A DNA stretch of 43,498 nucleotides from Patescibacteria group bacterium (lineage in GTDB: Bacteria; Patescibacteriota; Patescibacteriia; UBA2591; UBA6264), in the NCBI GenBank assembly GCA_018896315.1, contig JAHIMV010000081.1:1-43498 (forward strand), read 5' to 3'. The position numbers and the translations under genes are program-made. Below are positions 6,179 through 36,583 of this stretch, piece by piece. The notes under the pieces were generated by a model. The model was not told the DNA's origin, did no database searches, and was given only the letters and a program-made list of their open reading frames with translations. How positions within the stretch are numbered: the first letter of the stretch is position 1; each line of letters starts with the position of its first letter.

Positions 6179-7684
6179 ATGTCTAAATTTTATATCACCA
6201 CTCCAATATATTATGTTAATGCCAAACCTCACTTAGGCGGGGCTTATACTACTTTAGCCGCAGATGTTTTAGCTCGTTGGCATAGAATGAAAGGGGAGAA
6301 TACATTTTTTTTAACAGGGACAGATGAGCATGGAGAAAAGATTGCTAAAGTGGCTAAAGAGAAAAAAATTACTCCACGACAATTATGTGATCAAAATGCA
6401 GCTAAATATGAACAAGTTTGGGATACTTTAAAGATTTCTTATAATAAGTTTATTAGAACAACTGATCCTGTTCATGAAAAAATGGTTGCTAAGGTTTTTC
6501 AACATCTCATTGACAAAAAATTAATTTATAAAGGGATTTATCAGGGTCTTTATTGCGTTGGTTGTGAAAGGTATTATACAGCCAAAGAATTAGTTGACGG
6601 AAAATGTTCGATTCATCAAAAAAAAGCAATTACTCTTTCAGAAGAGTGTTATTTTTTTAAATTATCTAAATTTCAAAATCGCTTGCTTAAATTAATCAAA
6701 AATAATAAATGGGTAATTGAGCCAGAAGAAAGAAGAAATGAGGTGCTGGGATTTTTAAGAACAGAGAAACTAGAGGACTTAGCCTTTTCTAGAGAAAAAG
6801 TTGAGTGGGGTATTGCAGTACCTGGGGACAGCTCTCAAACAATTTATGTTTGGATAGATGCTTTGTTAAATTATTTGTCAGGAATTGGCTGGAAAGGCCA
6901 GGAAGGAAAATGGCCATTGAATTGGCCCCCAGAAATTCAATTAATTGGTAAAGATATTCTAAGATTTCATGCTATTATCTGGCCTGGTGTTCTTTTAAGT
7001 TTGGGAGCTCCTTTGCCAAAGAAACTTTATGCTCATGGCTTTTTTACAATTGGCGGGAAAAAGATGAGTAAGTCTTTAGGTAATGTTCTTGATCCTGAAG
7101 AGTTGGCAATGACTTTTGGAGCAGATGCGCTTCGCTGGCTAATGCTTTCTGCTTTTCCTTTTGGGCAAGATGGTGACATTTCACAGTCCAAGTTTTATGA
7201 TAAATATAATACAGATTTATCTAATGGTTTAGGCAATTTATTAAGAAGGGTTTTAACTTTAGCTTTAAAAAATAAAAAGAAATTTTTACCACCTAAAAAA
7301 GTTGATACAAACTTTAAAAAACAGATAGGCTTGGTTTGGCAAAAATATGAAAGATCTCTTAATCAATTGAAATTTGAAACCGCTATAGCAAGCATTAATG
7401 ATTTAGTCAGTTTTTGTGATAAATATATTGATAGCAAACAACCTTGGCGGTTATTTAAGAAAGATATTGCTGAATATCAGATAGTCTTGTATAATCTTTT
7501 AGAAGGGCTACGTCACCTTGCTTGGTTGACTCAGCCTTTTATGCCAGAAAAAAGTAATCAAATTTTTCAAAGTCTGGGAATTTTAGGACAGGAAAAGAAA
7601 AACCCCTTAGCCAAAGGACAGGTGTGGGGAAAAACAGAGTTTAAAGAAATTATTTTAGGTGAAATATTATTTCCAAAATTATAA
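6179..7684 (+). CDS. metG: methionine--tRNA ligase
   Basis: Class I aaRS motifs (PHLGG HIGH variant, KMSKS), Cys knuckle CVGCERYY..C.IH, anticodon-binding C-terminal region. Confidence 0.95.
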   Translation: MSKFYITTPIYYVNAKPHLGGAYTTLAADVLARWHRMKGENTFFLTGTDEHGEKIAKVAKEKKITPRQLCDQNAAKYEQVWDTLKISYNKFIRTTDPVHEKMVAKVFQHLIDKKLIYKGIYQGLYCVGCERYYTAKELVDGKCSIHQKKAITLSEECYFFKLSKFQNRLLKLIKNNKWVIEPEERRNEVLGFLRTEKLEDLAFSREKVEWGIAVPGDSSQTIYVWIDALLNYLSGIGWKGQEGKWPLNWPPEIQLIGKDILRFHAIIWPGVLLSLGAPLPKKLYAHGFFTIGGKKMSKSLGNVLDPEELAMTFGADALRWLMLSAFPFGQDGDISQSKFYDKYNTDLSNGLGNLLRRVLTLALKNKKKFLPPKKVDTNFKKQIGLVWQKYERSLNQLKFETAIASINDLVSFCDKYIDSKQPWRLFKKDIAEYQIVLYNLLEGLRHLAWLTQPFMPEKSNQIFQSLGILGQEKKNPLAKGQVWGKTEFKEIILGEILFPKL

Positions 7685-7705
7685 ATTTTGTTTGATATTT
7701 TCAAT

Positions 7706-7719
7706 CCGCCAGTTGGCGG
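7706..7719. repeat. ccgcc-NNNN-ggcgg mini hairpin after metG
   Basis: ccgccagttggcgg, the same stem as the rplD/dnaJ motif. Confidence 0.5.
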
Positions 7720-7746
7720 AGTAGAAAATTCAATTCCAAAATTATA

Positions 7747-7876
7747 ACCCAGCACTTATTTTGCGAAACAGAAACAAAATTTTATATATATAACAAGGTA
7801 AAATAAGTTTATTTTTCGCGAAAGAGCGTTAAAACACTCTTTCGCCAAGACATACCTAGCAAAATAAGTGCTGGGT
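7747..7876 (+). repeat. family B 130-nt palindromic element, copy 1 (metG-cvpA spacer)
   Basis: 16-bp terminal inverted repeat acccagcacttatttt / aaaataagtgctgggt and inner hairpin gcgaaagag..ctctttcgc. By eye identical to copy 3, including the following gctcaaa. Confidence 0.9.
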
Positions 7877-23273: not shown

Positions 23274-24479
23274 ATGGCAGTAAAAGAAAAATTTGAAAGA
23301 GACAAGCCGCACGTAAATGTTGGTACTATTGGTCATGTTGACCATGGAAAAACTACTTTAACAGCGGCTATGTTAAAATGCTTAAAAGCATCTGGTAAAA
23401 AGGCCGAAGAAAAATCTGTTGATCAAATTGATAATGCTCCAGAAGAAAGAGAAAGGGGTATTACAATTGCTTTAGCTCACTTGGAATATACAACTGATAA
23501 ACGTCATTATGCTCACATTGATTGTCCTGGTCATGCAGACTATATTAAAAACATGATTACTGGGGCGGCACAAATGGATGGCTCAATTTTGGTTATTTCC
23601 GCTACTGACGGACCAATGCCGCAAACAAGAGAGCATATTCTTTTAGCTAGACAGGTTGGAGTTCCGGCAATGATTGTTTATTTAAATAAAACTGACCAAG
23701 TGCAAGACAAGGAATTAATTGAATTAGTCAAAGAAGAAGTTAAAGAATTGCTTAAGAAGTATGAATTTCCTGGCGATGAAATTCCTATTATTGAAGGATC
23801 AGCTTTAAAAGCTTTGGAATGTGGTTGTGGTAAAACAGATTGTCCACATTGCGGTTCAATACTTAAGTTGGTTGAAGTCCTTGATAGCTATATCCCTGAG
23901 CCAAAAAGAGACACTGATAAACCATTTTTAATGCCTATTGAAGACATCTTTACTATTGAAGGCAGAGGAACCGTAGTTACAGGTAAAATTGAAAGAGGAA
24001 TTGTTAAATTAAATGAAGAAATAGAAATTGTTGGATTAAGACCTACTCAAAAAACCGTAGTTACTGGAATTGAAATGTTTAGAAAGTCTTTAGAAGAAGG
24101 AATGGCTGGCGATAACGCCGGTATTCTTTTACGCGGCACTAAAAAAACAGACGTAGAAAGAGGTCAGGTTCTTGCCAAGCCAGGTACGGTTAAACCTCAT
24201 ACTGAGTTTGAAGGAAAAGTTTATATTCTTTCCAAGGAAGAGGGTGGCCGTCATACCCCATTTTTTAAAGGGTATAAGCCACAATTCTATATCCGGACTA
24301 CTGATGTTACTGGTGAAGTAACCTTGCCCGAGGGAACAGAAATGGCCATGCCAGGTGATACACTTAATATTAATGTTAAATTGAATAAGGAAATTGCTTT
24401 AGAAGAACAACAGAGATTTGCCCTTAGAGAAGGTGGCAAAACTGTCGGGGCAGGCGTAGTAACAAAACTCATTAAATAA
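23274..24479 (+). CDS. tuf: elongation factor Tu
   Basis: [23 protein letters not shown] GTPase motifs. GAGG Shine-Dalgarno sequence 8 nt upstream of the ATG. Confidence 0.97.
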
Positions 24480-24604
24480 AAATGCGATACCAATATACTA
24501 ATACATACGAATTATACGAATAATTTGAAGTATTAGTGTGTCGTAATGTTAAATTTGTATTATTAGTATCAATTTGTATATTAGCATTGATTTAGTTCTT
24601 TGTA
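24480..24604. repeat. family D copy 3 (tuf-rpsJ spacer)
   Basis: gcgataccaatatactaatacatacgaattatacgaat ... attagtatcaatttgtatattagcattgat. Confidence 0.8.
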
Positions 24605-24964
24605 ATGACGAAAGAAAAAATTAAGACACAAAAATCAATTAAAAAAGAAGAGGCTAAATACCAGCCGAGAATTCGGATTAAAATTAAATCATATGACCAT
24701 CGAGTTATTGATGAAGCTTTAAAAGGAATTATTGAAGCGATTTCTCGGTCTGGCGCCAAGGTAATTGGCCCGATTTTTCTCCCTACAGAGAAAAAAAAAT
24801 ATACGGTCCTTCGTTCCTCTTTTGTTCATAAAGATTCTCGAGATCAGTTTGAGAAAAGAATTCACAAGAGGTTGCTTGATATTACTGATTTTAATCCCCA
24901 AACATTAGAAACTCTAACTGGCCTTCATTTGCCAGCAGGAGTAGATGTGGAAATTAAAATGTAA
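24605..24964 (+). CDS. rpsJ: 30S ribosomal protein S10 (with ~20-aa Lys-rich N-terminal extension)
   Basis: IRIKIKSYDHRVIDEA..PTEKKKYTVLRS.FVHKDSRDQFE.R.HKRLLDI. First gene of the S10 cluster, after tuf. Confidence 0.9.
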   Translation: MTKEKIKTQKSIKKEEAKYQPRIRIKIKSYDHRVIDEALKGIIEAISRSGAKVIGPIFLPTEKKKYTVLRSSFVHKDSRDQFEKRIHKRLLDITDFNPQTLETLTGLHLPAGVDVEIKM

Positions 24965-24974
24965 AGAGTTTTTT

Positions 24975-25018
24975 CAAAAATTTTAAAGTTGAGATTAGCG
25001 AAACTGCAGAAATTTTTG
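24975..25018 (+). repeat. H1 hairpin module, copy after the rpsJ stop
   Basis: caaaaattt ..agcgaa.. aaatttttg (9-bp stem). Preceded by taa-agag and followed by ttagaaaaccttt plus core A. Confidence 0.7.
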
Positions 25019-25031
25019 TTAGAAAACCTTT

Positions 25032-25089
25032 ACCCTGTTAAATAATTTCGCTTTTAGCGAAATTGCCGCAAGGCGGCATTTAACAGGGT
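25032..25089 (+). repeat. family A Y-shaped 58-nt core, copy a (rpsJ-rplC spacer)
   Basis: accctgttaaat[aatttcgc-tttt-agcgaaatt][gccgc-aag-gcggc]atttaacagggt: a 12-bp outer stem enclosing two hairpins. Confidence 0.9.
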
Positions 25090-25337
25090 TCTCGAAAATC
25101 TAACAAAATTTTCATCGTTCCCTAAACTCGAAAATTTTGAGATTTTCGGAATAATTTGATCAGGGGAAAGCAAGGTTAAAAGTGAACTCTTAAGTTTCAT
25201 AAGAGTTATTGTTTAATCAAACTTTTTCTTAATTTTGAGGTTCAAAATTCTCTAAAGAGATGACAATTTAGTCAAATTTTTCACAGCCAGGCTTAAGGTC
25301 AGAGAAATTTGGTCTCAAACCTGGTTTTTTAATACCT

Positions 25338-25955
25338 ATGAAATTCATTCTTGGGAAAAAAATAGAAATGTCCCAAATTTTTAAAGGGGACAAGGTTATT
25401 CCGGTAACAAAAATTCAAGCCGGCCCTTGTTTGATTACTCAAATTAAAACACAAGAAAAAGACGGTTATGAGGCTATTCAGATTGGATTTGCTAAGAAAA
25501 GAAAGAATACTAAATCATTATTAGGTCATTTAAAAAAGGGTTTAGCTGACAAAGAGTATAATCGATATTTAAAAGAATTTAAAACAGAAAGGGGTGATTT
25601 AAAAATTGGAGATAAGATAAAAGTTGATATTTTTCAACCTGGAGATAAAATAAAGATTGTTGGTACCTCTAAAGGAAAAGGGTTTCAAGGAGTAGTTAAG
25701 CGACATGGTTTTCATGGAGCATCAGCTACACATGGAACCAAAGATCAAGAAAGAATGCCTGGTTCAATTGGAGCCACTGGTCCTGCCAGAGTTTTTAAAG
25801 GAAAAAAAATGCCTGGAAGAATGGGAGGCAAACAAGTTACAGTTAAAATTTTAGAGATTATAGAGGTTAATCCAGAAGAAAATTTATTATTAGTCAAAGG
25901 ATCTGTTCCTGGGGCAAGGAACTCATTATTAGAAATTACTCAAGTAAAATATTAA
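25338..25955 (+). CDS. rplC: 50S ribosomal protein L3
   Basis: ILGKKIEMSQIF.., GKGFQGVVKRHGF, conserved cluster position. Confidence 0.93.
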   Translation: MKFILGKKIEMSQIFKGDKVIPVTKIQAGPCLITQIKTQEKDGYEAIQIGFAKKRKNTKSLLGHLKKGLADKEYNRYLKEFKTERGDLKIGDKIKVDIFQPGDKIKIVGTSKGKGFQGVVKRHGFHGASATHGTKDQERMPGSIGATGPARVFKGKKMPGRMGGKQVTVKILEIIEVNPEENLLLVKGSVPGARNSLLEITQVKY

Positions 25956-26650
25956 TGTTAAAAGTTTCAGTTTACAATCAAGAAGGAAAAGTAATTGGAC
26001 AAGAAGAATTAGATCCTGAAATTTTTGGATTGGAAAGTAAACCTGATTTAATTCATCAAACCGTAGTATCTCTTATGGCTAATCAGCGCCATGCTTTTGC
26101 TCATGTTAAAACTCGTTCAGAAGTACGGGGAGGAGGAAGAAAACCTTGGAGACAAAAGGGGACTGGTCGGGCTCGAGCAGGCACAATTCGTTCACCTTTG
26201 TGGCGGGGCGGTGGAATCACTTTTGGTCCAGATAAAAATAGGAATTATTCTCAGAAAATTAATAGAAAAGCTAAAAGACAAGTGCTTTTTATGTGTCTTT
26301 CTGATAAAGTTAAAGAAGAAAGAATGTATGTTTTGGATAAGTTAGAAATGCCTGAAATCAAAACCAAAAAGTTTACTCAAATTTTATTTAAGTTGATTCC
26401 TGAATATAAAGACAAGACTTCCGCCAAAGGCGGATCCGCCTCCGGCGGAAAAAAAATCCTTTTTGGCTTGCCTGAGAAGGATTTAAATATAATTAGATCT
26501 GTACGAAATATTAAAGGTTTAAAAACTATGCCGATTATTAATTTAAATATTTTAGACTGTTTAAAGGCAGACTATTTATTAACCACTTTAGACGGTGTAA
26601 AAAAAATTCAAGAACATTTTAAAATAGATGGCTCACCATTAAATAAATAA
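25955..26650 (+). CDS. rplD: 50S ribosomal protein L4
   Basis: RSEVRGGGRKPWRQKGTGRARAGTIRSPLWRGGG. ATG overlaps the rplC stop by 1 nt. Contains a GC-rich hairpin pair in frame at 26421..26448. Confidence 0.93.
   Translation: MLKVSVYNQEGKVIGQEELDPEIFGLESKPDLIHQTVVSLMANQRHAFAHVKTRSEVRGGGRKPWRQKGTGRARAGTIRSPLWRGGGITFGPDKNRNYSQKINRKAKRQVLFMCLSDKVKEERMYVLDKLEMPEIKTKKFTQILFKLIPEYKDKTSAKGGSASGGKKILFGLPEKDLNIIRSVRNIKGLKTMPIINLNILDCLKADYLLTTLDGVKKIQEHFKIDGSPLNK
26421..26448 (+). repeat. GC-rich double-hairpin motif inside rplD
   Basis: ccgcc-aaa-ggcgg at ccgcc-tcc-ggcgg, translated SAKGGSASGG. GC-rich island in an AT-rich gene. Confidence 0.75.
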
Positions 26651-26735
26651 AACATGGGAATTTTCACCCAGTTTAGAAATTTAATGGGGTAAAAGAAGTA
26701 ATTGATTGAAAATTAGATATATTAAAAATACTTTT

Positions 26736-27218
26736 ATGGCAGAAAAAAGACTTAAAAAATTTCTAACGGGGTTTAAAAGAAAAATAAAGCCAGCGGTTAA
26801 GAAAGAAGAAGTTAAAAAGGAAAAAGTGGAAAAGGCAAAGGAAATAGAAAAAGATGAGAAAATAGAAGATAAAAAGCAACAGAAATCTAAAACAGAAATA
26901 AAAAAAACTGTTAAAAAATTAATACAAAGACAAGGAGTTGATATCTCAATTTTACTAAGACCAATTATTACAGAAAAAGCAACTGACCAAGAGGTCAAGG
27001 GATGCTATATTTTTGAAGTTAATTCAAAGGCAAACAAAATTTCAATAAAAAAAGCAATTGAACAAATTTACGGAGTCAAACCCTTAAGAGTAAATATTAT
27101 TCGAGTACGTGGGAAAAAAGTAAGATATGGGCGTTCAACAGGTAAAACAAAGGCATGGAAAAAAGCTTTAGTTTTTCTAAAAAAAGGAGATAAGCTGCAG
27201 TTTGTGCAGAAATCCTAA
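26736..27218 (+). CDS. rplW: 50S ribosomal protein L23 with ~70-aa Lys/Glu-rich N-terminal extension
   Basis: L23 core ILLRPIITEKA..FEV...ANK..IK.A.E..YGVKP..VN begins about residue 75. First ATG is at 26736 (track start 26706 is TTG). Confidence 0.85.
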   Translation: MAEKRLKKFLTGFKRKIKPAVKKEEVKKEKVEKAKEIEKDEKIEDKKQQKSKTEIKKTVKKLIQRQGVDISILLRPIITEKATDQEVKGCYIFEVNSKANKISIKKAIEQIYGVKPLRVNIIRVRGKKVRYGRSTGKTKAWKKALVFLKKGDKLQFVQKS

Positions 27219-27395
27219 ATAATAAATAACAAATAACAAACAATATCCAATGACCAAAATCCAAATGACCAAAACAAATACGTTTAGAATTTAGAATTTT
27301 GCCCCGGCCTTCGTAGCCGAAGCTACTTCGGCGGAGTAGGCAATTTGTTTAGAATTTGGTGCTTGGTGTTTGGAATTTGGAGCGAAGCGACTATT
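27219..27395. repeat. structured spacer (rplW-rplB) ending in the gagcgaagcga..ATG motif
   Basis: ccaaaatccaaatgaccaaaacaaat versus atttgtttagaatttggtgcttggtgtttggaatttgg arms, GC hairpins in the centre. 3' end ggagcgaagcgactattATG resembles 830..849. Confidence 0.55.
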
Positions 27396-28238
27396 ATGCT
27401 TAAAATATCTAAACCAACAACTCCAGGTAGGAGAAAAATGAGCGTGGTTGATACTAGTGGACTATCAAAAGTGAGACCATTAAAGAAATTGGTTAGTATA
27501 AGAAAACAAAAAGCAGGCCGAAGCAAAGGAAAGATTACTGTTCGTCACCAAGGCGGGGGAGAAAAAAGATTTTACAGAAAGATTGATTTTAGGCAAGATA
27601 AATTTGATATCCCGGCGAAAGTTAAAACATTGGAATATGATCCAAATCGTTCTGCTTGGATTGCTTTATTACATTATACGGACGGAGAAAAGAGATATAT
27701 ACTTGCTCCGCACAGTCTTAAAGTAGGTGATGAGATTATTAGTTCAAAAAAGAAGATTGATGCAAAATTAGGCCATCGCATGCCTTTAAAATACATTCCA
27801 GTGGGCATGGCCATTCACAATATAGAATTAATGCCAAATCAAGGTGGAAAAATTGTTCGTTCGGCTGGTAATTCAGCTATTTTAATGGTTGTGAATGATG
27901 GGTTTGCGCAAATTAAACTGCCCTCATCTGAAAGAAGGCTTGTTAAAGAAGATTGTTTAGCTAGTTGCGGTCAGGTTAGTAATCCAGAGTGGCGATTTAT
28001 TCGCTGGGGAAAAGCTGGTAGGATGCGTCATAGAGGAATTAGACCTTCAGTTCGCGGTAAAGCAATGGCCCCAGTGGCTCATCCACACGGTGGAGGAGAG
28101 GGTAATTCACCTATTGGTTTAAAAAATCCTAAAACCCCTTGGGGAAAACCAGCCTTAGGGCCAAAGACTAGAAAAAAGAAAAAATGGACTAATAAATATA
28201 TTGTCCAAAGAAGAATTAAAAAAAGAAGAAAAAAGTAA
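27396..28238 (+). CDS. rplB: 50S ribosomal protein L2
   Basis: MLKISKPTTPGRRKMS.., HPHGGGEG. The track ORF start 27345 lies inside the upstream repeat, so the internal ATG at 27396 was chosen. Confidence 0.93.
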   Translation: MLKISKPTTPGRRKMSVVDTSGLSKVRPLKKLVSIRKQKAGRSKGKITVRHQGGGEKRFYRKIDFRQDKFDIPAKVKTLEYDPNRSAWIALLHYTDGEKRYILAPHSLKVGDEIISSKKKIDAKLGHRMPLKYIPVGMAIHNIELMPNQGGKIVRSAGNSAILMVVNDGFAQIKLPSSERRLVKEDCLASCGQVSNPEWRFIRWGKAGRMRHRGIRPSVRGKAMAPVAHPHGGGEGNSPIGLKNPKTPWGKPALGPKTRKKKKWTNKYIVQRRIKKRRKK

Positions 28239-28248
28239 AGGGCTTTCT

Positions 28249-28282
28249 TAAAAATTTCAAGTTGTAGACGTAGAAATTTTTA
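28249..28282 (+). repeat. H1 hairpin module, copy after the rplB stop
   Basis: taaaaatttc .. gaaattttta (10-bp stem, different sequence, same position). Preceded by taa-agggcttt. Confidence 0.7.
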
Positions 28283-28295
28283 TTAGAAAACCTTT

Positions 28296-28353
28296 ACCCT
28301 GTTAAATAATTTGTAAAGCAAATTAAAAATCAAAAATTTTTGTTTAACAGGGT
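28296..28353 (+). repeat. family A core, copy b (rplB-rpsS spacer), divergent inner hairpins
   Basis: Same outer stem accctgttaaa..tttaacagggt. Both inner hairpins are replaced by different self-complementary sequences (aatttg-taaag-caaatt; aaaaat-caa-aaattttt). Confidence 0.85.
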
Positions 28354-28383
28354 GCTCGAAAATTAATAAATTAATTTTTTCGC
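28354..28383 (+). promoter_or_regulatory. leader module L1 (gctc + AT palindrome + ttcgc-ATG) before rpsS
   Basis: gctcgaaaattaataaattaattttttcgc then ATG. No SD-like purine tract. Confidence 0.8.
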
Positions 28384-28680
28384 ATGGGAAGAAGTTTGAA
28401 AAAAGGACCTTGGGTTGACCCAAGATTACTCAAAAAAATTTCCAATTTAAAAAGAGGAGATAAAACAATAATTAAAACCTGGTCACGTAATTCAACAATT
28501 ACTCCGGAAATGATTGGTTTTACAATTGGGGTCCATAATGGTAAGACACATTTATCAGTATTTATTGTTGAAAATATGGTCGGGCACAAGCTTGGAGAAT
28601 TTTCTCCGACCAGAAAATTTGTCAAACATGGAGGTAAGATGCAAAGAGGATTAGAAGCAGCCGTTAAGAAATCAAAATAA
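28384..28680 (+). CDS. rpsS: 30S ribosomal protein S19
   Basis: [34 protein letters not shown]. Confidence 0.95.
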
Positions 28681-28883
28681 TCCCTCACCCTTTGGCGATA
28701 ATACTTCGCATTAGTGCTTCGCATTTTTAAACAAGTGTATTTAAAATTAAAAATAAAAAATCAAAATGCAAAATTTAGGTATCAAAAATTTTTCTTGAAA
28801 ATTTTTGATGATTGTATTTTATTTAATTTTAACATTTTTAATTGTCATTTTGATATTTGATATTTACATTTTACATTTATATT
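28681..28883. repeat. AT-rich long-hairpin spacer (rpsS-rplV), E-like
   Basis: Central 11-bp hairpin atcaaaaattt/aaatttttgat (28781..28809) flanked by an A-rich left arm and a quasi-complementary T-rich right arm (..ttttaattgtcattttgatattt). Confidence 0.6.
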
Positions 28884-29438
28884 ATGCAAGTAAAAGCTAA
28901 AGGAAAATATTTAAGAATATCCAGTAAAAAGATGAGGCTGGTAACAGACCTAATTAGAGGAATGGACTTAAAAGATGCCTTAGATTCTTTAAATTTTGTT
29001 CCTAAAAAGTCAGCCCGTTTTATTAACAAGGTTTTAAAGTCAGCTTTAGCTAATGCAGAACATAATTTTGATTTAAAAAAAGAAAATCTTTTTATTAAAG
29101 AAATTTTTGTTAATGAAGGGCCTACTCTTAAGAGATGGAGGCCAAGAGCTTTTGGTCGGGCCGGACAGGTTCGTAAAAGAAGCTCACATTTAGAAATTAT
29201 TTTAGGGGAAAAAATTCCTAGTTCAGAGACCAGATCTGTTAAAACAAAAATTAAAGAACCAATAATTGAATCTATTTCTAAAGATAAGATTGAAGAAAAA
29301 AAGCCGGTGGAAGAAACAGAAGAAGAAACGTTAAATCGACTTCAAGGAAAACATCAATCTAAACCAAATTATTACCAAAAAAAGGGTAAAGGGTTTAGAG
29401 GGAGTTTAAAAAAGATTTTTAGAAGAAAAACTATATAA
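28884..29438 (+). CDS. rplV: 50S ribosomal protein L22 with ~70-aa C-terminal extension
   Basis: MQVKAKGKYLRISSKKMRLV.DLIRG..V..AL..L.F, RA.GRA..VRKR.SH. Internal ATG at 28884 chosen over the track start 28857. Confidence 0.88.
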   Translation: MQVKAKGKYLRISSKKMRLVTDLIRGMDLKDALDSLNFVPKKSARFINKVLKSALANAEHNFDLKKENLFIKEIFVNEGPTLKRWRPRAFGRAGQVRKRSSHLEIILGEKIPSSETRSVKTKIKEPIIESISKDKIEEKKPVEETEEETLNRLQGKHQSKPNYYQKKGKGFRGSLKKIFRRKTI

Positions 29439-29448
29439 AGAGCTTTGT

Positions 29449-29481
29449 CTGAAATTTGGAGAACTAGCGAACAAATTTCAG
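29449..29481 (+). repeat. H1 hairpin module, copy after the rplV stop
   Basis: ctgaaatttg ..agcgaa.. caaatttcag (10-bp stem). Preceded by taa-agagctttgt. Confidence 0.7.
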
Positions 29482-29494
29482 TAACAAAACCTTT

Positions 29495-29622
29495 ACCCAG
29501 CACTTATTTTGCGAAGCAAAAACAAAATTTTATATATAACAAGATAAGATAGGTTTATTTCTCGCGAAAGAGCGTTAAAACACTCTTTCGCTAAGACTCA
29601 CTTGGCAGAATAAGTGCTGGGT
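29495..29622 (+). repeat. family B element, copy 2 (rplV-rpsC spacer), diverged
   Basis: Same termini (acccagcacttatt / aataagtgctgggt) and the same inner gcgaaagag hairpin, with several substitutions and indels. Confidence 0.85.
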
Positions 29623-29687
29623 GCTCAAATTTGTAACGAAATTTCCTTCGTTACTTCGTAACTCGTAAATTTAGACAAATTTAGCAT
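29623..29687 (+). promoter_or_regulatory. leader module L2 variant before rpsC
   Basis: gctcaaatttgtaacgaaatttccttcgttac...gacaaatttagcat then ATG. 5' caaatttg and 3' caaattt co-vary relative to the other copies. Confidence 0.7.
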
Positions 29688-30332
29688 ATGGGAAGAAAAG
29701 TAAATCCAAAAATTTTCCGTATTCCCTTAATCAGAGATTGGGAATCAAAGTGGTTTGCAAAAAAGCACGAATTTAAACGATTCTTAAAAGAGGATATACA
29801 GATTAGAGAGTTTTTATCAAAAAGACTAAAGAATTGTGGTATTTCTAATATTAGTATTGAAAGGTTGGCTAATATTATAAGAATCAGCATATCCACTGGT
29901 AAGCCTGGATTAATTATTGGTCGAGGAGGTCTTGATATTGAAAAATTAAAAAAAGAATTAAAAGTTTTTGTCAGCGATGGAATTGTTTTAGAAGTTAATG
30001 TTATTGAAGAGAAAAAACCAATGCTTTCCGCTGATGTGATTTTAGAAGGAGCAATTGCTGATTTAGAAAAAAGGTTTCCTTTCCGTCGAGTGATGAAAAA
30101 AGTTATTAGACAGGCTAAAACAAGCGAGGCCAAAGGAATGAAAATCATCCTTAGCGGACGTTTGGGGGGAGTTGAGATTTCTCGATCAGAAAAATTGATT
30201 TGGGGGAACTTACCGCTTCATACTTTGCGAGCAGACATTGATTATGCTCGTGGCACAGCCGCAACAACATATGGTTCAATCGGAGTTAAAATCTGGGTTT
30301 ATCGAGGAGAAAAATTTAGTAATTCTGTCTGA
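29688..30332 (+). CDS. rpsC: 30S ribosomal protein S3
   Basis: MGRKVNPKIFRI..W.SKWFA, KH domain GKPGLIIGRGG, GRLGG.EI.R.E. Confidence 0.95.
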   Translation: MGRKVNPKIFRIPLIRDWESKWFAKKHEFKRFLKEDIQIREFLSKRLKNCGISNISIERLANIIRISISTGKPGLIIGRGGLDIEKLKKELKVFVSDGIVLEVNVIEEKKPMLSADVILEGAIADLEKRFPFRRVMKKVIRQAKTSEAKGMKIILSGRLGGVEISRSEKLIWGNLPLHTLRADIDYARGTAATTYGSIGVKIWVYRGEKFSNSV

Positions 30333-30378
30333 TATTTTTAAGTCCAGAGGACGTAGAAAATTCAGCTACAGAATTGCT

Positions 30379-30508
30379 ACCCAGCACTTATTTTGCGAAA
30401 CAGAAACAAAATTTTATATATATAACAAGGTAAAATAAGTTTATTTTTCGCGAAAGAGCGTTAAAACACTCTTTCGCCAAGACATACCTAGCAAAATAAG
30501 TGCTGGGT
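30379..30508 (+). repeat. family B element, copy 3 (rpsC-rplP spacer)
   Basis: Reads identically to 7747..7876. Confidence 0.9.
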
Positions 30509-30539
30509 GCTCAAAAATTAATAAATTAATTTTTTTCGC
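30509..30539 (+). promoter_or_regulatory. leader module L1 before rplP
   Basis: gctcaaaaattaataaattaatttttttcgc then ATG. Confidence 0.8.
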
Positions 30540-30959
30540 ATGTTAATGCCCAAGAAACAAAAGTATAGAAAGAGCCACAAAGGAAGAAGGAGAACAAAAA
30601 GTCAAGCAACAAGGGGAACTACGGTTAGTTTTGGTGATTTTGGATTAAAAACATTAGAGCATCGTTGGATCACTGCTCGTCAAATTGAGACGGTGCGCCG
30701 AACACTTACCCGAGTATTTAAAAAAAGAGGAAAGATTTGGATTAGAATTTTTCCTAATAAACCAGTTACGGCTAAAAGTTCAGAGATTCCTATGGGCGGG
30801 GGTAAAGGAGCGGTTGACCACTATGTCGTTGCGGTAAAACCAGGAATGATTCTTTTTGAGGTCACCGGAATTGATAAAGAATCGGCCCAAAAAGCGTTTA
30901 AAGCAGCTTCATATAAATTGCCAGTGAAAACTAAGTTTGTTAGCAAAGATAATATTTAA
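30540..30959 (+). CDS. rplP: 50S ribosomal protein L16
   Basis: MLMPKKQKYRK.HKGR.., RWITARQIE..RR.LTR, MGGGKG. Confidence 0.95.
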   Translation: MLMPKKQKYRKSHKGRRRTKSQATRGTTVSFGDFGLKTLEHRWITARQIETVRRTLTRVFKKRGKIWIRIFPNKPVTAKSSEIPMGGGKGAVDHYVVAVKPGMILFEVTGIDKESAQKAFKAASYKLPVKTKFVSKDNI

Positions 30960-30962
30960 AAA

Positions 30963-31148
30963 ATGAAGACAGAGGAACTTAAACCAAAAACAAAAAAAGA
31001 ACTGGAAAGATTGTTAGAAGATTCTAGGGAAAAACTACGTAATCTACATTTTGATATTCAAATGAAGCAGTCAAAAAATGTAAGGGAAATAAGAAAAGCA
31101 AAGAAATTAATTGCTAAAATACTTACATTTATTAATCAAAAAAATTAA
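30963..31148 (+). CDS. rpmC: 50S ribosomal protein L29
   Basis: 61 aa, LKPKTKKELERLLEDSREKLRNLHF, conserved position between rplP and rpsQ. Confidence 0.85.
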   Translation: MKTEELKPKTKKELERLLEDSREKLRNLHFDIQMKQSKNVREIRKAKKLIAKILTFINQKN

Positions 31149-31149
31149 T

Positions 31150-31401
31150 ATGGCCAAAAAAAGATTTCAAGGAGTAGTGACTAGTGATAAGATGGATAAA
31201 ACCATTGTTGTTATGATAAATCGGACAAAGGTGCATCCTATCTATAAAAAGAGATATCAGGTTAGTAAAAAATATAAAGTTCATGATCAGAAAAATGAAG
31301 CTAAAATTGGTGATCAAGTTACTTTTGAGGAATGCAGACCTTTGTCAAAAGATAAAAAGTGGAGATTAATAACGATTTTGTCTGAAAAAGCGAGCTCGTA
31401 G
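31150..31401 (+). CDS. rpsQ: 30S ribosomal protein S17
   Basis: MAKKRFQGVVTSDKMDKTIVV......HPIYKKR...SKKYKVHD..N.A.IGD.V...E.RPLSK.K.W. ATG at 31150 (the track start 31111 overlaps rpmC). Confidence 0.92.
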   Translation: MAKKRFQGVVTSDKMDKTIVVMINRTKVHPIYKKRYQVSKKYKVHDQKNEAKIGDQVTFEECRPLSKDKKWRLITILSEKASS

Positions 31402-31430
31402 AGCGAAGGTTTTTTGGTAACAAAATCGTT

Positions 31431-31488
31431 ACCCTGTTAAATAATTTCGCTAAAAGCGAAATTGCCGCAGGGCGGCATTTAACAGGGT
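31431..31488 (+). repeat. family A core, copy c (rpsQ-rplN spacer)
   Basis: As copy a, but the loop of hairpin 1 is aaaa instead of tttt and hairpin 2 is gccgc-agg-gcggc. Confidence 0.9.
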
Positions 31489-31518
31489 GCTCAAAAATTA
31501 ATAAATTAATTTTTTCGC
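31489..31518 (+). promoter_or_regulatory. leader module L1 before rplN
   Basis: gctcaaaaattaataaattaattttttcgc then ATG. aaaaattaat/attaattttt is a 10-bp self-complement. Confidence 0.8.
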
Positions 31519-31890
31519 ATGATTCAACCGGAAACAAGACTAAAAGTTATTGATAACACTGGAGCTAAAGAAATACAGTGTATTCGCGTTTTAGGCGGTT
31601 ATAGGAAGAGATATGCTCGTATTGGTGATATTATTACAGCGACAATTAAAAAAGCTGTTCCTCACACTTCAGTAAAAAAAGGAGAGGTGATTCATGCGGT
31701 TATTGTTAGAACAAAAAAAGAAACTCGTCGGGCCAATGGTGTTTATATCAGATTTGATGATAATGCCGCGGTGATTGTTGATAGAAAGACTAAAGAACCA
31801 AAAGGAGGTAGAGTTTTTAGTGTTGTTGCTAGAGAATTAAGAAAAAAAGGTTTTACCAAGATCGTCTCTTTAGCCCCCGAAGTACTTTAG
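31519..31890 (+). CDS. rplN: 50S ribosomal protein L14
   Basis: [27 protein letters not shown]...RYA.IGD.I. Confidence 0.96.
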
Positions 31891-31949
31891 TGATTTTATC
31901 TGATAAAATCGAGGCCGCCGGGCGAAGATTTTTCAGCTACAAAATCGCT

Positions 31950-32007
31950 ACCCTGTTAAATAATTTCGCTTTTAGCGAAATTGCCGCAAAGCGGCATTTA
32001 ACAGGGT
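31950..32007 (+). repeat. family A core, copy d (rplN-rplX spacer)
   Basis: accctgttaaataatttcgcttttagcgaaattgccgcaaagcggcatttaacagggt. Confidence 0.9.
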
Positions 32008-32037
32008 GCTCAAAAATTAATAAATTAATTTTTTCGC
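32008..32037 (+). promoter_or_regulatory. leader module L1 before rplX
   Basis: Identical to the rplN copy. Confidence 0.8.
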
Positions 32038-32346
32038 ATGAAAATAAAAAAAGGTGACACAGTACAAATAATTAATGGTAAAGATAAAGGAAAAAAGGGG
32101 AAAGTGATCCGATCTTTACTTAAAGAAGGCAAGATAGTTGTTGAGGGTTTAAATGTGGTAACTAAGCATGTTCGGCCAAAAAAATCTGGAGAAAAGGGAC
32201 AAAGAATCAAGATGGCTACCCCTTTGTATGTTTCAAAGGTAATGTTGATTTGTCCTCATTGCAAAAAAAGAGTTAGAGTGGGATACAAAATTTTAACTGA
32301 TAATAGAAAAAAAAGAATTTGTCGAAAATGTAAAGATATAATATAA
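32038..32346 (+). CDS. rplX: 50S ribosomal protein L24 (C-terminal CxxC..CxxC)
   Basis: MKIKKGDTVQIINGKDKGKKGKV (KOW motif). C-terminus CPHCKKRVRVGYK...RICRKCKD. Confidence 0.92.
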   Translation: MKIKKGDTVQIINGKDKGKKGKVIRSLLKEGKIVVEGLNVVTKHVRPKKSGEKGQRIKMATPLYVSKVMLICPHCKKRVRVGYKILTDNRKKRICRKCKDII

Positions 32347-32356
32347 AGGGCTTTGT

Positions 32357-32392
32357 CTAAATTTTGGAGTCCGAAGGGCGAACAAAATTTGG
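32357..32392 (+). repeat. H1 hairpin module, copy after the rplX stop
   Basis: ctaaattttg ..ggcgaa.. caaaatttgg. Preceded by taa-agggctttgt. Confidence 0.7.
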
Positions 32393-32405
32393 TAACAAAA
32401 CCTTT

Positions 32406-32463
32406 ACCCTGTTAAATAATTTCGCTTTTAGCGAAATTGCCGCAGGGCGGCATTTAACAGGGT
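32406..32463 (+). repeat. family A core, copy e (rplX-rplE spacer)
   Basis: accctgttaaataatttcgcttttagcgaaattgccgcagggcggcatttaacagggt. Confidence 0.9.
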
Positions 32464-32520
32464 GCTCATAATTGTAACGAAATTTATTTCGTTACGAGTA
32501 ACTTATAAATTTCGATAATT
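32464..32520 (+). promoter_or_regulatory. leader module L2 before rplE
   Basis: gctCATAATTgtaacgaaatttatttcgttacgagtaacttataaatttcgatAATTATG. Confidence 0.75.
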
Positions 32521-33069
32521 ATGGCAGATTTAAAGCAAATATATTTAAAAAAAGTTGTTCCAGAATTAGTCAAAAAATTTGATTATCAGAACAAGATGGC
32601 TGTTCCTAAGATAGAAAAAATTGTTGTTAATTCTGGATTAAGTCGTGGAACTACAGAGAAAAATTCTAAATATGTTGACATGGTTAGTCAGACAATTGCT
32701 AAAATTACAGGACAACAGCCAGTTAAAAATTTAGCAAAAAAATCAATTGCTGGTTTTAAAATTAGAGAAGGAATGCCAGTTGGCGTAAGTACAACTCTGC
32801 GAGGCCCGAAAATGTATAATTTTCTAGATAAATTAATTAATATTGCTTTACCAAGAATAAGAGATTTTAGAGGACTAAAAAAACAGAGTATTGATCAACA
32901 GGGTAATTTATCAATCGGTTTTAAAGAGCAGGTAGTTTTTCCAGAGATTAATCAGGAAAATCTTGAATCAACCCATGGTTTACAAGTAGTGATTACAACA
33001 ACAACTCAAAGTAAAGAAAAGGCATTAGAATTATTTAAATTATTAGGATTTCCCTTTAGAAAAGAATAA
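32521..33069 (+). CDS. rplE: 50S ribosomal protein L5
   Basis: LKQIYLKKVVPEL.KKF.Y.N.M.VPKIEKIVVN.G.., LP.IRDFRGL. Confidence 0.95.
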   Translation: MADLKQIYLKKVVPELVKKFDYQNKMAVPKIEKIVVNSGLSRGTTEKNSKYVDMVSQTIAKITGQQPVKNLAKKSIAGFKIREGMPVGVSTTLRGPKMYNFLDKLINIALPRIRDFRGLKKQSIDQQGNLSIGFKEQVVFPEINQENLESTHGLQVVITTTTQSKEKALELFKLLGFPFRKE

Positions 33070-33078
33070 ATTTGACAT

Positions 33079-33264
33079 ATGGCAACTAAAGGACAAGTAG
33101 TTAAATCAAATAAAGAGCCTAAATATCGGACACGAAAAGTACGACGTTGTTGGCGTTGCGGAAGAAGACATGGCTATATGAGAGAATTTGATGTTTGTCG
33201 CATTTGCTTTAGAGAATTAGCAACTAAGGGGGCAATCCCAGGTATAAGAAAATCATCTTGGTAA
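33079..33264 (+). CDS. rpsN: 30S ribosomal protein S14, type Z (zinc form)
   Basis: 61 aa with [23 protein letters not shown]. Confidence 0.93.
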
Positions 33265-33402
33265 GATAAAAATTCAAATATCAAAAATTAAAAATCAAAA
33301 TGACATATCAAAATCTAAAATTAATAAATAATAAAAATTATCCCGAAGGGATACCTAAATTTTGCATTTTGCATTTTGCATTTTGCATTTAACGAAACGT
33401 TT
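33265..33402. repeat. AT-rich long-hairpin spacer (rpsN-rpsH), E-like
   Basis: Left arm atcaaaaattaaaaatcaaaatgac.., central tatccc-gaa-gggata hairpin (33339..33353), right arm four tandem ttttgca units. Confidence 0.6.
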
Positions 33403-33807
33403 ATGACTGATCCAATTGCCGACATGCTAACAAGAGTTCGTAATGCTTTGGCTATTAAAAAACCAGAGATAGTTTTGCCTTATTCCAAGGTTAAGTTTAA
33501 TATTGCTAAAGTATTAGAAAAAGAAAAATTGATTGAAAAAGTGGAAATAATTGATGCGGCGAAAAGTAAAACAGGATTTAAGCAGTTAAAAATTAAATTA
33601 AAGTACAATGAAGACAATCAACCAGTTATTGGTACTTTAAAAAGAATCAGCAGCCCAGGTCAACGTATTTATGTTAAAAAAGATAAAATTCCCAAAGTTT
33701 TAAATGGTTTGGGAATGAATATTTTATCTACCTCTAAAGGCTTAATGACCGGACAAGAAGCTAGAGAGAAGGGTTTAGGAGGAGAATTAATTTGTGAAAT
33801 ATGGTAA
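33403..33807 (+). CDS. rpsH: 30S ribosomal protein S8
   Basis: MTDPIADMLTRVRNAL... Internal ATG at 33403 chosen; the track start 33376 lies in the ttttgca tandem repeat. Confidence 0.93.
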   Translation: MTDPIADMLTRVRNALAIKKPEIVLPYSKVKFNIAKVLEKEKLIEKVEIIDAAKSKTGFKQLKIKLKYNEDNQPVIGTLKRISSPGQRIYVKKDKIPKVLNGLGMNILSTSKGLMTGQEAREKGLGGELICEIW

Positions 33808-34074
33808 CGCGATACCAATATACGAATGCATGCGAATGATACGAATAAAGCACACGAATAGTAAAACATAATGCTAATCTACGAATGTATGCGAATGCTA
33901 CGAATTACGAATAAAGCGCGCAAATTATTATTCGCGTCATTCGCGTGAATTAGCGTATTAGTGTCGCTACTTTTAACACAACATGAATGCGCCCACACGA
34001 ATATTAGTATAATCAGTATCCATTCGTATATTAGCATCGATTAAATTAATTCGTATATTAGCATCGATATTATT
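33808..34074. repeat. family D copy 4 (rpsH-rplF spacer), expanded, 267 nt
   Basis: cgcgataccaatatacgaatgcatgcgaatgatacgaat ... attcgtatattagcatcgat duplicated in tandem at the 3' end. Many acgaat/attcg units. Confidence 0.8.
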
Positions 34075-34623
34075 ATGTCAAGAATTGGTAAAAAAATTAT
34101 TTCTGTTCCAGAAAATGTTGAAATAAAAGTACAAGATCAACAGATTTTAGTCAAAGGGCCAAAAGGCGAATTAAAGCAATTTTTGCCAGATTTTGTTAAA
34201 ATTGAAATAAAAGATAATCAATTGAAAGTTTTAGTTAAAAATCCTGAAGAAAAAGAACAAAAAGCTTGTTGGGGGACGTTTGCTAGTCTGATTTCTAATA
34301 TGATTCAAGGGGTAACCCAAGGATTTAAAAAAAAACTAGAATTAGTAGGGGTGGGTTATCGGGCAGAAAAACAAGGAGATAAGATTATTCTTAATGTTGG
34401 TTTTTCCCATCCAGTAGAATATTTAGTTCCTAAAAATATTGAAGCAGACGTTGAACAAAGAACAATTATTATTCGGGGATTTGATAAACAGTTAGTAGGA
34501 GAAACAGCAGCACAGATTAGGAAGTTTAGAAAACCAGAACCATATAAGGGAAAGGGAATTAAATATTCCGATGAAGTAATTCGTCGAAAAGCTGGCAAAA
34601 AGGTTGCTGGAGCAGGAACATAG
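34075..34623 (+). CDS. rplF: 50S ribosomal protein L6
   Basis: MSRIGKKIISVPENVEI......I.VKGPKGEL, GVGYRA, PEPYKGKGI.Y. Confidence 0.95.
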   Translation: MSRIGKKIISVPENVEIKVQDQQILVKGPKGELKQFLPDFVKIEIKDNQLKVLVKNPEEKEQKACWGTFASLISNMIQGVTQGFKKKLELVGVGYRAEKQGDKIILNVGFSHPVEYLVPKNIEADVEQRTIIIRGFDKQLVGETAAQIRKFRKPEPYKGKGIKYSDEVIRRKAGKKVAGAGT

Positions 34624-34911
34624 AAAAATCAAAAATCAAAAATCAAAAATCAAAATTATTTTATTAAAAAATCAAAAAAGAACAAGTTCCTCTCAAGCGA
34701 GAGTAAAATGGAAAACGTAAAAAGGAATTGCTGATTGCCGATTGTTGATTGTTTGGAAAGATAGACAAAGGTTTCAATTAGCAATTAACAATTAAGACTA
34801 GTTTTTAATTTTTACATTTTAATTTGTCATTTTACATTTTGATGGTTCGACTTTGCTCACCATCAATCCTGAGCGTAGTCGAAGGATTGATATTTAAATT
34901 TTACATTTTCT
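34624..34911 (+). repeat. family E element, copy 1 (rplF-rplR spacer), carrying a nested 50-nt hairpin element
   Basis: (aaaatc)n left arm, centre gaacaagttcctctcaagcgagag..aattgctgattgccgattg..caattagcaattaacaatt, right arm tttacattttaatttgtcattttacattttga. Confidence 0.85.
34841..34890 (+). repeat. 50-nt hairpin element nested in family E copy 1
   Basis: gatggttcgactttgctcaccatcaatcctgagcgtagtcgaaggattga. Absent from the otherwise collinear copy 2 (..ccattttga|tatttaaatt..). ttga occurs on both sides. Confidence 0.9.
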
Positions 34912-35277
34912 ATGGCTGAAGTAAAAAAACAATTGCAGAGAGAAAAAAGACATCGCCGAGTTCGCGCAAAAATTAATGGGACAAGTGAATGTCCAAGACT
35001 CTGTGTTTTTAGAAGCAATAAATATATTTATGTGCAGTTGATTGATGATCAAAAAGGGATAACTTTATTATCTGTTACAGATAATAAACCAAAAACAAAA
35101 TCTAAAACTAAAGAATCTTCAAATATAAATAGCGCCTTAGAGGTTGGAAAAATTTTAGCAAAAAAAGCTATTGAAAAGAAAATTAAAAAAATAGTTTTTG
35201 ATCGTGGAGGATATAAGTATCATGGTCGAGTTAAGGCAATAGCGGAGGGAGCAAGGCAAGGTGGACTTAAGTTCTAA
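34912..35277 (+). CDS. rplR: 50S ribosomal protein L18
   Basis: [49 protein letters not shown]. Confidence 0.95.
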
Positions 35278-35499
35278 ATCAAAAATCAAAAATCAAAAAT
35301 CAAAATTATTTCATTAGAAAACTAAATAAGAACAAGTTCCTCGCAAGCGAGAGTAAAATGGAAAACATAAAAAAGAATTGCTGATTATTCGGAAAGATAT
35401 ACAAAAATGTCAATTAGCAATTAACAATTAAGATTAGTTTTTAATTTTTACATTTTAATTTGTCATTTTCCATTTTGATATTTAAATTTTACATTTTCT
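35278..35499 (+). repeat. family E element, copy 2 (rplR-rpsE spacer)
   Basis: Collinear with copy 1 apart from a short internal deletion and absence of the nested hairpin. Ends ..tatttaaattttacattttctATG exactly as copy 1 does. Confidence 0.85.
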
Positions 35500-35988: not shown

Positions 35989-35992
35989 AATT

Positions 35993-36472
35993 ATGACAGT
36001 TAAATTATCTAATTTAAAACCAGGGTCTAAGGCAAGACGCCGCTCAAGAAGAGTTGGCAGGGGAAATAATGCTTCTGATCCAGGCACTTATTCTGGCCGG
36101 GGCATGAAGGGACAAAGATCAAGATCTGGCGGAAAAAAGGGTCTTAAAATTAGAGGCCTAAGAAGAAACTTGAGAAGCATGCCAAAATTAAAGGGATTTA
36201 ATAAAAGAAAGTCTTTAAGCATTAAACCAATAAGTTTGAAAGATTTAGAAAACAAATTCAAAGAAAATGAAATTGTTGATCTTGCTAAATTGGTTAAGAG
36301 TGGTTTAATTAAAAAGAAAGACCGTCGAGTTAAAATTTTAGCTCAAGGGAAGATAACAAAAAAATTAACTATTAAAGCTCATCAATTTTCAAAAGCGGTG
36401 GAAAAGGCTGTTAAAAAAGCAGGGGGAAAGATAGTGATTTTATCTGATAAAATAGAGCTTAAAAAGCGATAA
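35993..36472 (+). CDS. rplO: 50S ribosomal protein L15 (last 12 codons lie in a repeat cassette)
   Basis: LSNLKPG..ARR...RVGRG...G.....GRG.KGQ..RSG. Follows rpsE directly, with no rpmD. Confidence 0.93.
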   Translation: MTVKLSNLKPGSKARRRSRRVGRGNNASDPGTYSGRGMKGQRSRSGGKKGLKIRGLRRNLRSMPKLKGFNKRKSLSIKPISLKDLENKFKENEIVDLAKLVKSGLIKKKDRRVKILAQGKITKKLTIKAHQFSKAVEKAVKKAGGKIVILSDKIELKKR

Positions 36473-36493
36473 TTTTTCAGCTACAAAATCGCT

Positions 36494-36551
36494 ACCCTGT
36501 TAAATAATTTCGCTTTTAGCGAAATTGCCACAGGGTGGCATTTAACAGGGT
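36494..36551 (+). repeat. family A core, copy f (rplO-secY spacer)
   Basis: Hairpin 2 is gccac-agg-gtggc, a double compensatory change relative to gccgc..gcggc. Confidence 0.9.
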
Positions 36552-36583
36552 GCTCGAAAATTAATTAACATTAACTTTCTCGC
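36552..36583 (+). promoter_or_regulatory. leader module L1 variant before secY
   Basis: gctcgaaaattaattaacattaactttctcgc then ATG. Still an imperfect AT palindrome. Confidence 0.7.

Follow-up and report, generated by a model that had tools for sequence, protein, structure and literature searches.

Hairpin H1 in the S10/spc operon of a Patescibacteria genome as the probable left end of a very small GIY-YIG nuclease element

Introduction

The Ssn family comprises GIY-YIG nucleases of 94 residues that have hairpin repeats on either side (Chenal et al. 2025, PMC11893778). These nucleases bind their repeats solely as single-stranded DNA (ssDNA), and of one strand only; the cut falls a few nucleotides upstream, and each of the homologues prefers its own repeats (PMC11893778). 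Here we describe H1, a hairpin that recurs at gene ends in the S10/spc ribosomal-protein operon of a Patescibacteria group bacterium (GenBank assembly GCA_018896315.1, contig JAHIMV010000081.1, positions 1 to 43,498 of the forward strand). This whole stretch of 43,498 nucleotides is called the window; the 1.1-Mb genome to which it belongs is G000, comparison genomes are labelled G001, G002 and so on, and C-numbers denote contigs. H1 probably forms the left end of very small mobile elements that make up one family, and the cassettes in the window would be nuclease-deleted forms of them. As in the Ssn system (NTS/SRM repeats; NTS-ssnA-NTS units), a single-domain GIY-YIG protein of about 90 residues lies between hairpin repeats (PMC11893778), the repeat is also scattered genome-wide in many gene-less copies, its orientation matters, and nuclease subclades pair with different hairpins. 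The two systems also differ, since H1 is a three-tier, AT-rich hairpin of 60-73 nt whereas the Ssn repeat is GC-rich and about 28 nt long. Unlike Ssn units, the H1 unit extends exactly from a stop codon to the following start codon, both of which it rewrites, and is found almost only in operons, co-oriented with them; the solved structures nearest to its nuclease are UPF0213 proteins (1zg2 and 1ywl).

Miniature inverted-repeat transposable elements (MITEs) and mosaic repeats, including the Correia (PMC2649163), BOX and REP/BIME plus RAYT (PMC11893778) types, resemble H1 in being short non-coding derivatives or partners of a mobile gene that are palindromic, modular, co-transcribed, and present or absent between close relatives. 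The H1 element departs from them in its complex hairpin ends, in having a GIY-YIG partner instead of a DDE or Y1 transposase, in an insertion anchored on stop and start codons, and in the occupancy of the same site in different genera. A further comparison is offered by the seg genes of phage T4, which are free-standing GIY-YIG homing endonuclease genes; the Seg proteins contain a DNA-binding domain and cut double-stranded DNA, and the flanks are co-converted. Both the seg genes and the H1 element place a small GIY-YIG gene between conserved genes, and in both the same junction recurs in separate lineages; however, the H1 element encodes a bare catalytic domain, has hairpin ends and displays no visible co-conversion of the flanking codons. 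At the RNA level, intercistronic hairpins processed by RNase III separate the early genes of phage T7; each contains an asymmetric internal loop, and after cleavage the upstream message keeps a stem at its 3' end. H1 is likewise intercistronic and has an asymmetric internal loop, but it is a dispersed, recently gained repeat and not a fixed site. No description of such repeats or elements in Patescibacteria, also known as the Candidate Phyla Radiation (CPR), was found in the literature.

Architecture of H1

The S10/spc operon occupies 24.6-38.2 kb of the window on the + strand, and many of its spacers, 111-373 nt in length, are assembled from repeated modules. Folded from the stop codon through the 'aacaaaaccttta' linker, H1 has the same three-tier architecture in every copy. 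The basal helix, in which T(A/G)A-AG.GTTTTGT pairs with the linker ACAAAACCTTTA, usually opens with the stop codon of the upstream gene and closes with the 'aacaaaaccttta' linker, and the stop codon is hence base-paired. On the 3' side, a 2-nt bulge separates the basal helix from a middle stem of 10 bp. Above this stem lie a 2x3 internal loop, in which A-R faces G-N-A, and a top tier formed by a variable helix of 3-6 bp plus its loop. The stacked helices amount to about 26 bp in all, with conserved asymmetric loops, and within the internal loop only the G and A of G-N-A are nearly invariant. Read directly from the sequence, H1 also contains stops in three frames (TAA at its start, TGA in GTCTGA and TAA in CAGTAAC), so that the upstream protein is closed at any landing place.

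An earlier note on this DNA had described a hairpin directly after the stop codons of rpsJ, rplB, rplV and rplX, with a 9-10-bp stem that differs between copies yet stays complementary, a conserved AGCGAA loop, and a separate second flavour after rplN and rplO and partly at rpsC and rpsQ. The four hairpins are found where the note placed them and fold as it described (z -2.7 to -4.6), and H1 is, as proposed, a separable structured module at the stop codon that precedes a core of family A or B. The 9-10-bp stem exists as well, as the middle tier of a larger hairpin. The letters AGCGAA, by contrast, do not form a loop: they combine the 3' strand of the top helix with the G-N-A side of the internal loop, and in the rpsJ copy the identical letters occupy a non-homologous place. 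Nor is the second flavour a separate one. With a covariance model, R1, that was built from 31 H1 copies, its members score as the same H1 family (47-62 bits, z -3.6 to -6.2) and form the same hairpin on a different basal sequence (TAGTGATTTT/AAAATCGCTA); the gattttatc/gataaaatc pairing that had been assigned to them is an alternative fold of the 5' half of H1. As these copies belong to the family, the window holds nine H1 copies, and the dinucleotide-shuffle fold z of the eight that lie in the operon ranges from -2.7 to -6.2. In second-flavour copies (for example window 31890-31946), GATTTT/AAAATC/GATTTT/AAAATC segments pair either as one long hairpin, the minimum-energy form, or as two short hairpins, and this subclass could switch between the two folds.

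Copy number and conservation of pairing

A search of the genome with R1 returned 38 H1 copies at E <= 2.6e-5, including the nine in the window, and scores on the opposite strand were far lower. The pairing of H1 is kept through compensatory changes. Across 36 distinct copies of G000, 90.6% of the cells are paired and changes on both sides occur in 22 of the 26 pairs; none of 500 shuffles matched this pairing level, and partners slid by 1-3 columns pair in 40-57% of the cells. Because the G000 copies are paralogues fitted to the model, the count was repeated independently on 11 other genomes, whose 53 distinct copies took no part in building R1. Here, 92.4% of the cells are paired, 21 of the 26 pairs are compensatory, and again 0/500 shuffles reached the observed level. 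The assertion that the stems vary while remaining complementary is therefore borne out in both copy sets, and neither ground that the note gave for rejecting it, stems drifting without compensation or similar complements in shuffled controls, applies. The balance of G.U against A.C in the model-fitted alignment (32 vs 19, p = 0.09) is partly an alignment artefact of a bulged subclass.

In 32 of 36 H1 copies in G000, and in 36 of 53 copies in the other genomes, the fold of the sense strand is better than that of the antisense strand. In the window, Rfam at the gathering score found no family besides four tRNAs, and at a permissive threshold (E up to 5) the region 24400-38200 gave nothing relevant.

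The full-length element and its nuclease

In G017, G022 and G002, H1 lies 10-35 nt ahead of an intact GIY-YIG open reading frame (ORF) of 84-89 aa. In G017 and G022, in particular, H1 is followed by the left arm CCCTGTTAAAT and stands 34-35 nt ahead of an 89-aa ORF, after which comes an inverted H1-like hairpin that ends at the host ATG and scores with R1 on the opposite strand. In these two genomes the hairpin repeat is therefore present on both sides of a small single-domain GIY-YIG gene. The ORF ends in ...LKSYLTGYSNL*, and the codons of this end contain the core A right arm ATTTAACAGGG and 'TGCTCAAATTT', the start of leader L2. The complete element measures about 420 nt and consists, in order, of H1, a short left arm (CCCTGTTAAAT...), the 89-residue GIY-YIG gene, the inverted H1-like hairpin and the next host ATG. 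The first triplet of H1 doubles as the stop codon of the upstream gene, and the last nuclease codons hold the matching right arm (ATTTAACAGGG). Only Pfam GIY-YIG matched the nuclease domain, and a search of NCBIfam gave nothing above cut-off. Among 30 loci with small GIY-YIG genes, H1 is found only beside the closest subclade, at three loci.

The cassettes of the window can be described as H1 followed by a 56-nt core A or a core B of about 126 nt and then by leader L1 or L2. They align to the 420-nt element of G017 over its first ~80 nt and again over its last ~75 nt, and the gene is missing. Because they align to both ends of the unit, they are taken as gene-less deletion derivatives. Two traits that define a MITE are found here: both termini are shared with a coding element while the gene is lacking, and presence or absence between close relatives is accompanied by an empty site (G001 against the window at 14 spacers, and the rpsJ and rpsI junctions). 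In G000 itself, an H1-linked nuclease occurs only as a truncated copy, on C128.

A separate observation concerns an intact 90-aa GIY-YIG gene elsewhere in the genome (G000:C100:13834-14088, - strand), which is 69% identical to the H1-linked nuclease of G017 and lies at the start of a host gene with no H1. Upstream of it stands an apparent duplicate of the first codons of the host (MKLLILTQKV... vs ...NILILTQRV).

Presence and absence across genomes

The sister species G001 belongs to the same genus, and its operon genes are 87-96% identical in DNA (about 92%) to those of the window, but it has no H1. Its 21 spacers from rpsJ to adk all measure 2-63 nt, except for the 181-nt rpsJ-rplC spacer, and contain no cassette, as against 14 spacers of 111-373 nt in the window. 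At rpsJ-rplC, the window matches G001 except for an added 187-nt insert (24965-25151) that lies directly after the TAA and itself ends in TAA, and about 186 nt of native spacer follow the cassette. TAA is found at both ends of this insert; elsewhere the insertion takes the place of the native spacer, without a visible duplication. A second informative site is the rpsI junction, where the spacer is 12 nt in G001 and 9 nt in G002, the 420-nt element is present in G017, and G012 retains no more of it than the two outermost ends, TAAAGATTTTT on the left and ...AAATTTCGACAAATTTAGT-ATG on the right.

More broadly, H1 is found in 16 of 41 related genomes, with 1-42 model matches each (weaker opposite-strand matches included). 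Its distribution among the 40 relatives is patchy, with none in G001 and carriers spread across six families of the order, and it was absent from all of 150 other genomes sampled across the phylum. Among the genomes searched, the element family is thus confined to one order of Patescibacteria. The occupied spacers differ from genome to genome, beside several unrelated palindromic fillers. H1 is not a conserved regulatory RNA; being absent from the sister species, patchy, and joined to a GIY-YIG gene, it is primarily read as the end of a mobile element.

Some junctions are nonetheless shared. At one and the same rpsC junction, G000 and G017 have an unusual H1 variant in common, with cassette ends that are 97% identical and S3 proteins that are 70% identical, and the congeners G001, G012 and G020 are without the rpsC H1 and have the lysine-rich S3 tail of other genera. 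H1 copies after rplV and nusG are likewise common to G000 and G017, and two further junctions are shared by G000 with G002. In a recombination tract test of G000 against G017, the flanking codons were native-type up to the junction at the shared rpsC and rplV cassettes, which does not support homologous replacement with long arms between the two genomes.

Cassettes of the window and their host genes

The H1 copies are co-oriented with their host genes. In G000, a same-strand ORF of at least 60 codons precedes 33 of the 38 copies, 24 of which open with its stop as their first triplet; in the other genomes 49 of the 53 copies follow such an ORF, with the stop as first triplet in 37. The genes upstream of H1 mainly belong to the expression machinery, namely 13 ribosomal proteins, IF-1, EF-P, NusG, SecE, RpoA, RpoB, PNPase, RNase J, PheT and a MetG-like gene. 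On C78 of G000, a cassette of H1 plus leader is found in the spacer of the rpoB-rpoC pair.

All nine H1 copies of the window lie on the + strand. The first operon copy, after rpsJ (24962..25032; R1 75.0 bits, z -2.7), begins with TAA 24962-24964, a triplet that both ends rpsJ and opens the basal helix. The complete 187-nt cassette at this site (24965..25151, +), for which a filled and an empty site can be compared, comprises H1, core A and an inverted end hairpin, is absent from G001 and terminates in the second TAA; its right-end hairpin (25094..25147, -) is H1-like on the opposite strand (R1 39 bits, E 8e-5). The copy after rplB (28236..28296; 74.5 bits, z -3.5) is followed by core A at 28297-28352 and by leader L1, which runs to the rpsS ATG at 28384. 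After rplV, H1 (29436..29495; 72.7 bits, z -3.5) precedes core B (29496-29621) and leader L2 (29622..29687, +), which adjoins the rpsC ATG at 29688. This leader corresponds to the last codons (TGCSNL*) of a lost nuclease ORF plus the inverted right-end hairpin, on the basis of an R1 match on the - strand at 29626-29683 and of the alignment to the 3' end of the full-length G017 element. The rplX copy (32344..32406; 78.2 bits, z -4.6) is followed by core A (32407-32462) and by L2 up to the rplE ATG at 32521, and its cassette can be aligned with the G017 element at either end. After rplN (31887..31950; 54.1 bits, z -3.9), where the stop is TAG 31888-31890, come core A (31951-32006) and L1.

At three further places H1 is out of frame and the host protein reads into it, as seen for S3 (...GEKFSNSV*), S17 (...TILSEKASS*) and L15. 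Here H1 itself encodes the C-terminal residues of S3 (30318-30332), S17 (31371-31401) and L15 (36434-36472), displacing the ancestral tails of G001 and other genera. In the copy over the rpsC end (30316..30379; 53 bits, z -6.2), for which C-termini from 30 genomes were also compared, the S3 tail ...GEKFSNSV is closed by a TGA within the GTCTGA arm, and the codons of this tail are complementary to the 3' arm (ACAGAATTGCTA). Over the rpsQ end (31370..31431; 62.5 bits, z -5.9) the stop TAG 31399-31401 falls in the apical part of the hairpin. Over the rplO end (36431..36494; 47.1 bits, z -3.6), a comparison with G001 shows L15 reading across the 5' arm to TAA 36470-36472. The ninth H1 lies outside the operon, at 7679..7747 (45.6 bits), after a 501-aa ORF at 6179-7684; behind it come a core B copy and a leader of a third type.

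Interpretation and alternative explanations

H1 is part of an inserted unit, its pairing is compensated, it is co-oriented with its hosts, and it is joined to one nuclease subclade. By analogy with the Ssn system, both end hairpins are putative ssDNA binding sites of the nuclease, on the top strand for H1 and on the bottom strand for its inverted partner. The enzyme is predicted to cut at the feet of the hairpins, which coincide with the stop and start codons, and would thereby set the borders of the unit. Such a model would explain why both hairpins are kept in gene-less copies, why their pairing is compensated, why one strand folds better, and why the borders are exact. A more specific proposal is put forward tentatively, as one that is possible though not probable: H1 and its inverted partner could be the cis sites of a hitherto undescribed class of single-strand 'stop-to-start' homing elements, in which the bare 89-residue nuclease would cut both feet and the unit would supply stop and start. 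If so, recognition of conserved gene ends would lead to repeated invasion of the same junction across genera and, in turn, to clustering in ribosomal and RNA-polymerase operons.

Several points weigh against reading H1 as the left end of a nuclease-borne element. The unusual rpsC variant shared with G017 and lacking in congeners points to site-specific homing or to an undemonstrated transfer. At most sites the insertion has removed the native spacer instead of lengthening it, and in S3, S17 and L15 the last codons were replaced as well, so that simple cut-and-paste fails as an account. As the H1-linked nuclease of G000 is truncated, its 38 H1 copies may be relics or may have moved in trans. 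In addition, the bias towards sense-strand folding suits an RNA function equally well as a DNA hairpin on one strand. Finally, the SRM consensus of the Ssn repeats, HGTCWYN(0-2)YYVSBRHN(0-5)WNVSBRGN(0-2)RNCYNB, had 0 matches in 43 H1 rows and 0 in the 1.1-Mb genome, with 0-2 in shuffles.

The alternative that survives best, which takes up an idea of the earlier note and is judged unlikely, is that H1 is kept mainly as RNA, as an intercistronic hairpin that is cut by RNase III and/or blocks 3' exonucleases and forms a protective stem for the upstream cistron. In its favour, H1 lies on the sense strand of co-directional genes, has long stacked helices with conserved asymmetric loops and a sense fold that is more stable than the antisense one, and its hosts are mostly highly expressed translation and transcription genes. 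The genome encodes RNase III (C1:3981-4370), PNPase and RNase J, and the Correia elements of Neisseria, a repeat that binds RNase III, provide a precedent (PMC2649163). However, a sister species with about 92% identical genes manages with zero copies, the occupied junctions vary between genomes, and H1 arrives as one end of a nuclease-bearing unit. For the terminal hairpin of a mobile element, an effect on RNA would be secondary at most. As a side effect it is possible: since the three ribonucleases are encoded and H1 is co-transcribed with the operon, processing or 3' protection may arise as a by-product.

A role in translation is less probable still. Here, H1 and the leader would act together, and the folded cassette would juxtapose the stop and the next start, handing on terminating ribosomes without a Shine-Dalgarno sequence. 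The cassette does span exactly stop to start and is built of abutting helices, the 16S tail reads CACCTCATTT, and Shine-Dalgarno-like motifs are not enriched before starts: GGAG/GAGG/AGGA occur at -20..-4 in 89/1042 cases, vs 113/1042 in a control stretch. Yet the rpsJ-rplC cassette is trailed by its native spacer, which means that adjacency to the start is not required, and relatives cope with spacers of 2-15 nt. On C62 of G000 (~20811) the 3' tail of the 16S rRNA is GGATCACCTCATTT, in which the anti-Shine-Dalgarno CCUCC is altered to CCUCA; Shine-Dalgarno sites appear not to be used by this organism.

The genome encodes eight Y1 (IS200/RAYT-like) transposases, but it is very unlikely that any of them moves H1 as a REP/REPIN-type repeat. 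H1 resembles an inverted doublet forming a hairpin, and eight Y1_Tnp matches are present in G000 with none in G001; however, no Y1 gene is flanked by H1, the hairpins beside the Y1 genes are different ones, and no R1 match falls on the Y1 contigs. Co-occurrence is also poor, given that G022, G027 and G018 have 21, 13 and 8 H1 matches without Y1 and that G012 has four Y1 genes without H1, and the partnership was rejected on both grounds. The eight Y1 genes (200-240 aa) lie on C80, C123, C139, C30, C63, C94, C43 and C121 of G000, and several are bracketed by hairpin repeats of their own, for example GTGTAGACATCGAGTGTCTACA.

The idea of an intrinsic terminator or attenuator, suggested by a stable hairpin immediately after the stop codon, can be practically set aside, because the stems are AT-rich with no T-run after them, a terminator scan gives no + strand site at any H1, and the essential downstream genes need read-through. 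An integron attC site was also considered, as GTTAAAT and ATTTAAC occur in the arms, and was rejected from the sequence alone since their order is reversed relative to the attC core sites.

Taken as the end of a mobile element, H1 is of interest in more than one respect. Within congeneric divergence, the most conserved operon of a streamlined 1-Mb genome took fourteen insertions of 100-290 nt between essential genes, and three ribosomal proteins (S3, S17 and L15) had their C-terminal residues rewritten by the element. The element is best read as selfish DNA that fills the gaps between essential genes in an ultra-small bacterium. A well-compensated, 'RNA-like' hairpin that is tied to a DNA parasite also calls for caution in covariation-based RNA discovery in CPR genomes. 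If the pairing of nuclease and hairpin is true, the Ssn system would be extended to a new hairpin type, with new site-specific ssDNA nucleases and a concrete case of codon-anchored insertion.

Other observations

A promoter scan gave 55 sites vs 47.8 +/- 6.9 expected, with no excess. At the joint of the core A right arm and L1, a promoter-like TTAACA-17/18-TAAATT occurs about 12 nt before the ATG in four cassettes (28344-28372, 31479-31507, 31998-32026 and 36542-36571; TAACAT at 36571), each with a 9/12 match, which is chance level in AT-rich DNA. A further 56-nt copy of core A is found at 39897-39952 of the window, within an ORF by crude gene calls, and many further core A copies in the genome likewise lie within ORFs, with flanks TTCA...TAAA or TTTA...TGAA. 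The window also holds an ORF of 2526 aa at 8535-16115.

Other large palindromic fillers occupy six spacers of the window (28681-28882, 33270-33400, 33803-34073, 34617-34904, 35284-35499 and 37861-38123). In these, A-rich 'AAAATC' repeats stand opposite T-rich 'GCATTTT' or 'ACATTTT' arms, and the fillers are absent from G001, where the spacers measure 0-21 nt. Similar fillers of several families are present in the operon spacers of G002, G003, G005, G008 and G020.

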